Shown here: positions 3,661 to 53,704 of the stretch, piece after piece | Position numbering within the stretch: the stretch's first letter is position 1 | How the letters are laid out: each line of letters opens with the position of its first letter | Assembly: GCA_964016885.1 (NCBI GenBank) | Contig: OZ024749.1 | Coordinates: forward strand, 26,226,001 to 26,290,000 | DNA from: Eledone cirrhosa | Lineage: Eukaryota | Direction: 5' to 3' | DNA: 64,000 nucleotides | Notes under the pieces: model-generated | What the model saw: only the letters and a program-made list of their open reading frames with translations | What the model was told of the DNA's origin: nothing | Database searches by the model: none | Program-made: the position numbers and the translations under genes

Positions 3661-3988
3661 TTAGTAATTTATGCTTGTAATTTATGGAAGACCATCAGTT
3701 AGTTATTCAATCATGTATGTCTCCCAACGTATGATGTGTGAGAGAAAGGCTACCATTGATAAAAGGATAGACTGATAGACAGATAGTTAGGAGAAAGAGA
3801 CAGACAGACAGACACATACAAACATATATATATATATATATATATATATATATATATATATATATATATATATATATATATATATATATATATATAGAGA
3901 GAGAGAGAGAGAGAGAGAGAGAGAGAGAGAGAGAGGAACGGGGGTTGAGATAGATCGATAGATAGACATACATAGAAATATAGATATG

Positions 3989-5182
3989 TTTCTTTTATTT
4001 GCCACCAGGGCATCAAAAGTGGGACAAGTACAATGGGGGGAGTTTACAAAACAAGGCGTCCTCAATAAGGAAGAGGCAATAACAAGATATAAAAGTATAA
4101 AAATAAAATAAAATATAACAAAAAATAAAATTTATAACAAAGTCCTCAATGGCGAGGAGGCGCCTTGGGGGTCGCACACACCCCCGAAAAAAAGTCTGCA
4201 ACCCTTTTCCTCAAGAGCACAGAGAAGGGGTGCTCCCTTGGTCTTTCATCTTCCTCACCTATAGTCTGATGTAGAGTGAAGGCCCATTCACACGGGCCAT
4301 TCTCGCCACTTTCACCCATCTTTCATAAAAACGGCTGGGGTGCAGCACCTCTCTCTCCATCCTGATCCTTCTTTCGAAATGATATCGGAAGAAATGGACC
4401 AGTTGTTGGCCAGAGAGAAAGGTGTCTGACCTCAGTCCTTTCAGACGCGTCCACCATACAACCTCTTTCGCCATGGCTATTACGCACAGAAACACCGCCT
4501 CTTCTTCGTTTTTGAAGAGGGGAGGCGGCTTGATCGTTACAATAGACTCGGTGGTCAACCGGATCGGACCCACCCTTGACAGCAGTTGTTCGACATAGCC
4601 CGACAGATCGGCAATGCCCGAGCAGTGTACCAATGCGTGTGCAACGGTTTCCTCGTCGCACACGCATCTGGGACAGATCTTTTTCCAGGGGTCCCTACCC
4701 GGGCGCCCGTGTCTGTAGAGCCTTTCTCGAACGGGCAGAGCCCTTCTGTAGCATTGCCAGGCCAGGGACCTCTGGAAGTTATCCATGAGTCCCGGGCTGA
4801 ATGTCCTACCGAACAGGTTGGCCAGTTCGTCTTCCTCCATGCCTAGGGCTTCTCCGAGGGCGTCGTCGCACCTGCTAACCACCAGCCCTCTATAGAATGA
4901 CGAGGTGGATTCTCCACTGACAGCCGGGTCCGCCTGCCAGAGAGCCGTGAGCGCCTGGGCACACTCGGTGTGCCAGGCGCCCAGTTTTCTCGGTCTTTGC
5001 TTGACCCAGGATTGCAGCTCGGTGAGTGAGACGAGTCTGGGAAAGGGTCGACTCACAAACGGGGCCCACACCGGTTGACCGGAGAGGAATACCTGAAGGT
5101 GCCGTAGCCTTAATGCGTGTTTACGTATCATTAGCCACGGCATCCCCAGCCCTCCTTTCGAAGGGTGTTGACAGCAGATGGA
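3989..5182 (-). mobile_element. 5'-truncated Tx1-clade non-LTR retrotransposon, subfamily B
   Basis: ORF 4259-5143 is an ORF2 C-terminus (CPRC...ETVAHALVHC zinc motif, ends YIRL), near-identical to 46081-46965. The 5' junction runs into (GATA)n. Confidence 0.93.
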
Positions 5183-5645
5183 GATAGATAGATAGATAGA
5201 TCAGATAGATAGATAGATCAGATAGATAGATAGATAGATAGATAGATAGATAGATAGATAGATAGATAGATAGATAGACAGATAGTTAGGAGAAAGAGAC
5301 AGACACATACAACATATATATATATATATATAAATAGAGAGAGAGAGAGAGAGAGAGAGAGAGAGAGAGAGAGAGGGGGGAAGGGATTGAGATAGATCGA
5401 TAGATAGACATATATAGATAGATAGATAGATTTCTTTATTTACCATAAAGGCATAAAAAGAAGGGACAAATACAAAGGGGGAGTTTACATATAATCGAGT
5501 AAAAAGGGTGTAACATGAAAATAATCGAAAATAACCTCAAAAGGGAGGGGACGTGATGGGGGTTGCACACACCCCCGAAAAAGTGTGCAATCCTTTGCCC
5601 AGGGAGCACATGGAGAAGGTGCTCCCCTCTCCTTTACTTCTTTAC

Positions 5646-52300: not shown

Positions 52301-52825
52301 GGACAACTTCCAGAGGTCCCTAGCCTGGCAGTGTTACCGGGGGGCTCTGCCCGTTCGAGAAAAGCTCTACAGACACGGGCGCCCGGGCAGGGATCCCGCG
52401 AAAAAGATCTGTCCCAGATGCGTGCGCGACGAGGAAACCGTTGCGCATGCACTGGTACACTGCCCGGGCGTTGCCGATCTGTGGGCTACGTCGAACGACT
52501 GCTGTCGCGTGTGGCGCCGATTCGATTAACCGCCGAGTCTGTGGTGAACATCAAGCCGCCTCCTCCCTTCAGAAATGAAGCAGAGGCGGTCTTTCTGTGC
52601 GTAATAGCCATGATGAAAGAGGTTGTGTGGTGGACGCGCCTGAAAGGTCTGAGGTCGGGTGACTTTCTCTCCGGCCATCACCTGGTTTACTTCTTCCGAT
52701 ACCACTTCGGAAGAAGGATCAGGATGGAGAGAGAAGTGCTTGGTCCCAGACAGTTTTATGAAAGGTGGGTGAAAGAAGCGAGAATGGCCCGTGTAAATGG
52801 GCCTTCTCTCTACATTGTTCTGTAG
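49395..52825 (+). pseudogene. Tx1 ORF2 (EN-RT) with several frameshifts
   Basis: Pieces 49404-49631, 49679-50488, 50485-50620, 50571-52529 and 52331-52825 reconstruct ORF2. ATA sits where subfamily A has ATG. Confidence 0.9.
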
Positions 52826-53704
52826 GTGAAGAAGTGAAGAGGAAAGGGGGAGCGCCTCCTCTCTGGGCTTCCCCCGCGAAAAGAGTTGCACACTTTTCGG
52901 GGGTATGTGCAATCCCCAACACGCCCCCTCCCTTTTGAGGACTTTTTATTGTTATATTATTATTGTTATTCCTTTTTTCTTTACTCGATTTATGTAAACT
53001 CCCCCACTGTGTAAATGTCCCCTTCTTTTGTGCCCTCGTGGCAAATAAATAGAAATTTACCTATCTATCTCCTACTCTCTCTCTCTCCCTCTCTCTCTCT
53101 TGCTCTCCCTCTCTATTTATCTATCTGTCGAAATATCTGAAAGTTATATCAGTTTTGTTTTTCATCGATAAAGGTTTTGAGACTCTGCTGTAGTTGTTTG
53201 CAAGAGGCTGAAAGGAAGTTTAAACAAAGTACAACAACAACAGCAGCAGCAGCAACAACAACAACAGCAATAACAACAACAACAACAACAACAGCAGCAA
53301 CTGCAGCAGCAACAGCAACAACAGCAGCAACTGCAGCAGCAAGTCCTGTGAGAATGGCGAATGTGCTTGTGACGGTATGGAAGTGTGACATGCCATGAGT
53401 GAAGAGGGTTATCAGAATAAGTAAATAAATGATATATATATAATACATATATAGATGATATATGTATTATATATATATATATAGAGAGAGAGAGAGAGAG
53501 AGAGAGGGGGTAGATGTAGAGAGAGGGGAGAGAGAGAGAGTGGGAGAGAAAGAGAGAGAGAGAGAGAGAGAGGGGGTAGAGGTAGAGAGAGAGGAGAGAG
53601 AGAGTGGGAGAGAAAGAGAGTGGGATAGAGAGAGATAGAGATAGATAGATAGAGAGAGAGAGATGTATATGTCTGTATATAGGTACGTATCTAAAGTCTA
53701 AAGT

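Follow-up and report, generated by a model that had tools for sequence, protein, structure and literature searches.

In a 64-kb stretch of the Eledone cirrhosa genome (contig OZ024749.1 of assembly GCA_964016885.1, forward-strand positions 26,226,001 to 26,290,000; hereafter the window, with coordinates counted from its first base), we identified five copies, c1 to c5, of an APE-type non-LTR (lacking long terminal repeats) retrotransposon, all of which are joined at both ends to TATC-rich sequence in a single orientation with respect to the element. We consider it probable that this lineage, which has two open reading frames (ORFs), belongs to the L1 group and is likely of the Tx1 clade, sits in (TATC)n microsatellites in a fixed orientation and inserts there by sequence-specific target-primed reverse transcription. 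The window itself has a GC content of 39%, contains no N, and carries a very high load of microsatellites.

Element copies and TATC at their junctions

BLAST searches of the whole window, in which both long copies served as queries, returned exactly five copies, arranged in two clusters on opposite strands:

3989-5181, minus strand: c1, subfamily B, 5'-truncated, retaining ORF2 residues about 841-1145 and the 3' untranslated region (UTR), frame open
5431-11220, minus strand: c2, subfamily A, full-length, both frames open
11310-12281, minus strand: c3, subfamily A, 5'-truncated, retaining ORF2 residues 895-1145 and the 3' UTR, with pure (TATC)n on both sides
45428-47240, plus strand: c4, subfamily B, 5'-truncated, with one frameshift near 45880
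47348-53055, plus strand: c5, subfamily C, full-length, with at least five frameshifts in all (at least one in ORF1 and four in ORF2) and ATA as the ORF2 start

Copies c2 and c3 are 99.2% identical and form subfamily A, c1 and c4 are 96.2% identical (23 mismatches and 4 gaps) and form subfamily B, and c5 stands alone as subfamily C; three subfamilies were distinguished because the remaining pairs of copies are only 81-85% identical. Compared to c2, a fraction of 0.28 of third codon positions differs in c1, c4 and c5, while the corresponding fraction for first and second positions is 0.08-0.11. This roughly threefold excess at third positions indicates that the three subfamilies diverged as active elements under purifying selection. 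Judged by these comparisons, lineages that have long been separate, three in number, have the TATC habit in common.

TATC content was scored by counting 4-mers in TATC phase within the 30 bases adjoining each junction, with a maximum of 27. Read in the sense of the element, the scores of c1 to c5 were 23, 17, 26, 23 and 20 on the 5' side and 11, 19, 27, 9 and 7 on the 3' side; all 10 junctions were TATC-rich in this sense, and the antisense score was 0 at every one of them. Outside the clusters, a score of 6 or more was reached by 0.5% of 30-base windows and a score of 20 or more by 0.05% (1.2% and 0.3%, respectively, with the cluster flanks counted in). As a control, 27 other repeat intervals were hand-picked from a self-BLAST and from the reverse transcriptase (RT)-like element at 13.4-15.1 kb, and none of their 54 ends scored 7 or more on either strand. 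Among the 48,523 bases outside the elements, TA runs cover 5,116 bases (81 tracts), CA/TG runs 1,031 (35), TC/GA runs 493 (18) and TATC/GATA runs 500 (12), TA runs thus being ten times commoner than TATC. Altogether, the pattern of TATC at the junctions is real and far beyond chance, though the independent loci number only two. The presence of the same microsatellite on both sides in one orientation, a feature of microsatellite-specific Tx1 elements, was seen at 10 of 10 junctions.

A first-pass annotation of this DNA had described five copies of three subfamilies, which the BLAST searches and pairwise identities bear out. It had also described them as stacked head-to-tail without poly(A), and all five copies indeed end in AGAAA, shortly after an AATAAA-like word and with no poly(A). 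Its further statements, that every junction abuts GATA/TATC with (TATC)n as the sense strand in both clusters and that no copy lies in the commoner (TA)n or (CA)n, agree with the 10 of 10 sense and 0 of 10 antisense junctions found here, and TA and CA runs both cover more bases than TATC runs.

Duplications, flanking repeats and competing explanations

The 21-mer TCTATCTATCTATCTATATAT starts exactly at the 3' end of c2 and recurs 8 bases off its 5' end, and these are its only two occurrences in the window:

5410-5430, minus strand: 3' copy of the c2 duplication, 21 bp, an interrupted TATC word
11229-11249, minus strand: 5' copy of the c2 duplication, the right part of the 76-bp (TATC)n that separates c3 and c2

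From its sequence and placement, we read this word as a target-site duplication of c2, which means that the array with its TATATAT end predates the arrival of this copy. The flanks of the two clusters as a whole were as follows:

12282-12450, minus strand: cluster 1, outer flank on the 5' side, (TATC)21 and then decayed TATC, about 170 bases, no leftover 3' UTR seen
45374-45427, plus strand: cluster 2, outer flank on the 5' side, (TC)n-(TATC)n containing a single GATC variant, no leftover 3' UTR
53056-53130, plus strand: cluster 2, outer flank on the 3' side, a candidate duplication copy at 53058-53070 and then decayed TC/TATC

The two outer 5' junctions, those of c3 and c4, score 26 and 23 and are the independent ones; the other three of the five 5' junctions sit in a tract shared with the 3' flank of the upstream copy and could for this reason be tails. 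At their truncation points c1, c3 and c4 are joined to TATC, microhomology amounting to no more than 1-2 bases. Together with the c2 duplication, the location of both outer 5' junctions in TATC tracts argues that the repeat is a target and not only a tail. The earlier claim that 5' junctions in (GATA)n show more than a 3' tail is accordingly upheld by the two outer junctions and the c2 duplication but not by the three junctions shared with an upstream copy, and its broader proposal of TATC targeting is supported locally, as insertion into pre-existing TATC arrays, and is strengthened by the 21-bp duplication.

These observations also bear on the explanation that TATC is a 3' tail made by the element itself, with new copies landing in, or template-jumping onto, old tails and having no strong genome-wide preference. 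The doubling of three 5' junctions as the 3' flank of another copy fits this explanation, as do a 41-nt 3' extension that c1 and c4 have in common by descent (described below) and the additional TATC units that, in c4 and c5, separate the element from the 5' copy of its duplication. However, the TATC tracts around both outer 5' junctions are devoid of leftover 3' UTR, the c2 duplication shows that the interrupted array is older than c2, and landing in old tails would itself require a preference for TATC. We regard a tail of this kind as the whole explanation to be quite improbable.

Candidate duplications were also seen at c4, where a word of 23 bases is interrupted by GATC (45400-45422 and 47263-47285, plus strand), and at c5, where a word of 13 bases contains a rare ACC interruption (47326-47338 and 53058-53070, plus strand); the variant 12-mer of c5 occurs only twice in the window, once on each side of this copy. 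Further structure was found in the sequences between and behind the copies:

3771-3988, minus strand: 3' flank of c1, composite copy X', which consists of a 41-nt decayed TATC extension followed by (TC)20, then (TA)n, and a core of 22 bp
5182-5430, minus strand: spacer that separates c2 from c1, made up of composite X (head, (TC)20, (TA)n and core as in X') and of about 95 bp of (TATC)n, interrupted twice by a GATC-type variant, at the 5' junction of c1
47241-47347, plus strand: spacer between c4 and c5, the 41-nt extension common with c1 and then decayed TATC

Copies c1 and c4, which lie 40 kb apart on opposite strands, both have the 41-nt decayed TATC extension beyond their 3' end, and its last 22 bases are also found behind the duplication of c2 at an equal distance from the 3' end. 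The comparison suggests that elements of subfamily B likely take part of their 3' flank along with them, as a short tail of decayed TATC acquired at a previous target. The composite of about 200 bases flanks c1 on both sides and is present nowhere else in the window; it may have arisen by an older tandem duplication, by a long duplication made by c1, by 3' transduction, or as a dispersed TATC-rich repeat, and in the last case the target would be narrower than the bare microsatellite.

Such a narrower target, either a dispersed TATC-rich composite or decayed tails, could be selected either by the endonuclease or through pairing with the RNA 3' tail, in the way that Tx1D serves as target of Tx1L and Mariner-N4 as target of Tx1-Mar, and transposon-targeting Tx1 families are known (PMC4494074). 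The identical 22-base interrupted word behind c1, c2 and c4, which spans two subfamilies and two loci, speaks for it, and so do a GATC-variant 12-mer that occurs four times in the window, each time beside a copy, the composite on both sides of c1, and the emptiness of pure arrays such as that at 2641-2700. Against this, the 22-bp core of the composite occurs only twice, both times beside c1, even when 4 mismatches are allowed, c3 is bordered at either end by pure (TATC)n, and the flanks of c5 carry a different variant. We hold a narrower target to be unlikely.

The duplicated spacer around c1 and the extension common to c1 and c4 would also fit duplication or conversion, at the DNA level, of one ancestral element together with its block of microsatellite, with no repeated targeting. 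This is very improbable in our estimate: a self-BLAST of the window found no unique flank common to the two clusters, the copies have three different truncation points, the subfamilies differ by 28% at third positions in a pattern of purifying selection, and c2 has a duplication of its own.

Several findings weigh against insertion into (TATC)n as the rule for this lineage. Only two loci are independent of each other, and what follows the 3' end of c1, c4 and c5 is decayed TATC rather than pure repeat. The single clean case of duplication is c2: c1 has none, the longest word common to its flanks being 10 bases of pure repeat, and c3 is flanked by pure repeat. The candidate word of c4 is offset from the junctions by 5 bases on the 5' side and 22 on the 3' side and is also found behind c1 and c2, and it may for the latter reason be element-borne, while that of c5 is offset by 9 bases on the 5' side and 2 on the 3' side. 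The spacer of about 200 bp duplicated around c1 is not explicable by a staggered cut of 13-23 bp. Five TATC/GATA arrays of 12-60 bases, at least 582 bases from any copy end, are empty, including the purest free array of the window, 60 bp at 2641-2700. Lastly, a relative ending in (TTC)16 (locus L079, in which (TTC)n is known on the 3' side only) has no supported link to the window copies in the trees described below, falling at an open node in FastTree and apart at 89/62 in IQ-TREE.

Coding capacity, classification and relatives

The intact copy c2 has a leader of 226 bases upstream of ORF1 and is otherwise composed of the following parts:

9117-10994, minus strand: ORF1, 625 amino acids, with one CCHC knuckle at 311-324 and a Pro/Thr-rich C-terminal half
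5646-9083, minus strand: ORF2, 1145 amino acids, with an APE endonuclease, an RT and a C-terminal CCHC motif
5431-5645, minus strand: 3' UTR, with AATAAA near its end, terminal AGAAA and no poly(A)

In ORF2, the endonuclease residues N10, E39, D141, N143, D202, D226 and H227 are present, YADD is found at 686 and the CCHC motif at 1008-1025. Pfam matched Exo_endo_phos (E 1.3e-7, above the cut-off), RVT_1 (5.9e-27) and zf-RVT (8e-6, just under the cut-off). The knuckle of ORF1 is of the form CX2CX4HX4C and is retained in c5; Pfam gave zf-CCHC at E 0.31 only, and among the Atlas neighbours of ORF1, at 0.91-0.92, zf-CCHC is found in 75% and 12% of members. A search for homologues of ORF1 residues 80-340 gave none.

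At the ORF boundary of c2 (9084-9119, minus strand), ORF1 and ORF2 are in one frame, with a single TAG and 11 sense codons preceding the ATG of ORF2; c5 retains the TAGG context, has ATA as the start and is one base off in spacing. From this arrangement, translation of ORF2 by read-through or re-initiation is possible. In the 3' UTR, an 8-bp inverted repeat, TTGCACAC ... GTGTGCAA, was observed at 5558-5590 and at the equivalent places of the other copies, conserved throughout subfamilies A, B and C within a 3' UTR that has otherwise mostly diverged. Folding gave no support for a functional structure of this region, with a z-score of -1.33 for the whole UTR and conserved helices free of two-sided changes.

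The hairpin loop of the endonuclease has 9 residues, WRNDSGQSR in subfamily A and WANRSGQSR in subfamily C, which differ at two residues, compared to 11-13 residues in the sister group by manual count. We dropped the idea that this loop is short like that of R1Bm (the best sequence match being 2v0s), as 9 residues lie between the anchors, two more than in LR1.

The AlphaFold model of c2 ORF2 had a pLDDT of 83.5, and the top seven Foldseek matches to this predicted model were L1 ORF2p, with a best E of 1e-53 versus 5e-24 for the best R2; a profile search likewise gave 609 bits for L1 ORF2p versus 211 for R2, in a comparison against solved structures that span few clades. Further traits of the L1 group are the APE-RT-CCHC layout of ORF2, the three 5'-truncated copies and the 21-bp duplication at c2. 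By sequence and predicted fold, the window element is assigned to the L1 group of non-LTR retrotransposons, and membership of the Tx1 clade is likely. Its ORF1 has a CCHC knuckle, a Tx1-type trait unlike the mammalian Transposase_22 type; Tx1 ORF1 proteins are described as having a CCHC knuckle with or without an RRM (PMC5203782).

The proteins closest to the window element are P0001 (68%), P0077 (66%), P0074 (63%) and P0118 (61%). In RT trees built without named Tx1 families, the window copies and P0001 formed one clade (100/100), whose sister group consists of proteins at 38-46% identity. A tree of 37 rows, hand-chosen from 138 and rooted on two long branches, placed this clade inside a 30-row group (95/89) together with the U2 small nuclear RNA (snRNA)-inserted loci L003 and L007, which are Keno-like by target only; the earlier FastTree omitted 8 loci with fewer than 330 aligned residues and 2 proteins. 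A single cut phase for all microsatellite-flanked relatives had been considered and was dropped, as these relatives do not form one clade.

Data of 4 out of 21 listed runs were mapped to the region 5405-11245 containing c2, which gave 25,726 reads for X19 and 13,825, 1,574 and 114 contigs for X2, X5 and X6, respectively. The element family is thus abundant in one organism (A) and present in two others (B and C). The mapping skipped the repeat ends (5405-5444 and 11218-11245) and is hence no test of the flanks; likewise, a GATA repeat was found at none of the 24 loose ends listed of 1,214, several of which look by eye like sister subfamilies, and this has no bearing on the flanks. From a metagenome scan, the best 80 of 181 relatives were kept, all of them distant, at 22-44% over their best segment, and a TATC/GATA run of at least 4 units was present in 0 of these 80. 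Searches of viral contigs and prokaryote genomes gave no relatives with flanks. For Octopus vulgaris, an annotation from 2026 gives 80 L1-Tx1 families, 13 of them recently active, and a term search did not find the word "target" in it (PMC13282606).

Some relatives end in other sequences. U2 snRNA is found at the 3' end of L003 and L007 and U1 snRNA at that of L018 (9076-9230), L010 ends in the same first letters as the U2 loci, and L061 has a sub-threshold match to 5S rRNA at its 3' end. A repeat was seen at the contig end of L079, (TTC)16, of L056, (ATC)21, and of L017, (AT)27. The targets of the U1-adjacent and (ATC)n-ended elements may perhaps be undescribed.

Elsewhere in the window, a second, unrelated RT-like element was found on the plus strand at 12759-12849 and 13402-15083 (frames 13489-14655 and 14417-15025; Pfam RVT_1 at E 0.005). 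Its start recurs 640 bases upstream as a direct repeat of 91 bases, and its 3' end carries (TA)29; it may be Penelope-like. A dispersed repeat of about 190 bases, with many copies, some of them in tandem, and a tRNA-like head by eye (19554-19743, 23920-24513, 42363-42996, 31834-32259 and 57991-58119), presumably represents octopus-type short interspersed elements. Such elements and the heavy load of microsatellites point to an octopus-like mollusc as the probable host. An Rfam scan of the window, these repeats included, gave no match at the gathering level. Long inverted repeats or foldbacks, near-perfect with arms of 96-99% identity and some of them in (TA)n, lie at 57434-57807, 18912-19135, 18184-18816, 44559-44986 and 62919-63195; a tandem array of about nine 105-base units with 88% identity occupies 34966-35932; and a 284-codon open frame of ordinary composition, for which Pfam gave no match, runs from 26781 to 27635 on the minus strand.

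Proposed mechanism and comparison with known systems

The domain layout, the catalytic residues of c2, the TATC flanks, their orientation and the c2 duplication are directly observed in the window, and by analogy with target-primed reverse transcription and with Tx1L, the element's endonuclease would make the nicks and choose the site. The ORF2 endonuclease would nick the purine-rich GATA strand at about 5'-TAGA^TAGA-3', a position placed there because c2 and c3 read TCTA directly after AGAAA and whose phase is uncertain by 1-2 bases. The freed 3' end would prime copying of the element RNA by the RT, beginning with the terminal AGAAA, and the duplication would result from a second nick on the TATC strand, 13-23 bases along. 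Each insertion would leave a TATC array on both sides as a fresh target, which would account for head-to-tail stacks in one orientation, and nicking of a single strand would account for the fixed orientation. A more far-reaching scenario, in which a separate invertebrate Tx1-like branch acquired microsatellite targeting independently of Kibi and Koshi of fish, each of its insertions duplicates and lengthens a GATA array, the decayed TATC tail in the RNA of one subfamily selects the site by pairing with interrupted arrays, and the element is a main source of GATA microsatellites in its host, is tentative and, taken as a whole, rather unlikely.

No report of a TATC/GATA-specific non-LTR element was found in the full-text literature searched, most subscription papers and Repbase/Dfam being outside its scope, and a Repbase entry that notes a TATC target may already exist. 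The first-pass annotation had likewise mentioned no such report; it did not note, however, that Tx1 elements with the tetranucleotide targets (TTCC)n and (TTTC)n have been published (PMC4494074), so that (TATC)n lies just one letter away from a target already described. It is probably a new repeat unit for targeting of the Kibi/Koshi type, the target word being new and the mechanism not. If the proposed targeting is true, TATC would join the series of Tx1 targets TC, TTC, TTCC and TTTC, and GATA marker loci in the host would be hot spots of insertion. How APE endonucleases distinguish repeat units is described as not well understood (PMC3812793), and with the intact c2 and the loop differences between subfamilies A and C, recognition of a repeat unit would be testable with one small domain.

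Among solved structures, human LINE-1 ORF2p (PDB 9k6i, 8uw3 and 9hdr) was the best match over the endonuclease, the RT and the C-terminal part, at 16-17% identity; human L1 has a weak TTTT/AA preference and a poly(A) tail, whereas the window element has no poly(A) and an ORF1 with a CCHC knuckle. Tx1L, whose endonuclease shows target-specific nicking in vitro (PMC1950540), and Tx1-Mar have a target-specific APE endonuclease, but their targets are DNA transposons (PMC1950540, PMC4494074), and the hairpin loop of the Tx1L endonuclease has 11 residues versus 9 here by manual count. Other non-LTR elements with short targets include Waldo, (ACAY)n, Mino, (AC)n, and Dong, TAA (PMC3812793), as well as Togen, (TG)n (PMC4640811). 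Waldo and Mino resemble the window lineage in being APE-type and, as is probable here, microsatellite-specific, one of them with a four-base unit, but have insect hosts, another unit and another clade (the R1 clade, by the title of a cited reference).

Closer parallels lie within Tx1. The published microsatellite targets of this clade include (TC)n for Kibi and (TTC)n for Koshi of teleost fish (PMC4494074, PMC3812793), and target choice of Tx1 families has been put down mainly to the endonuclease, a target being called when present in more than 20% of copy flanks genome-wide (PMC4494074). Kibi and Koshi, whose specificity is assigned to the endonuclease, share with the window lineage a microsatellite target and the Tx1 clade, both likely here, and differ in having two- and three-base units versus the four-base TATC. 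Crocodilian Tx1 families, among them Tx1-1_Crp and Tx1-5_Crp, are found in (TTCC)n or (TTTC)n (PMC4494074). Compared by description rather than by sequence, they have another unit and vertebrate hosts; like the window lineage, they combine a Tx1-type APE endonuclease with a pyrimidine-rich, four-base unit that contains TC, and TTTC is one letter away from TATC.

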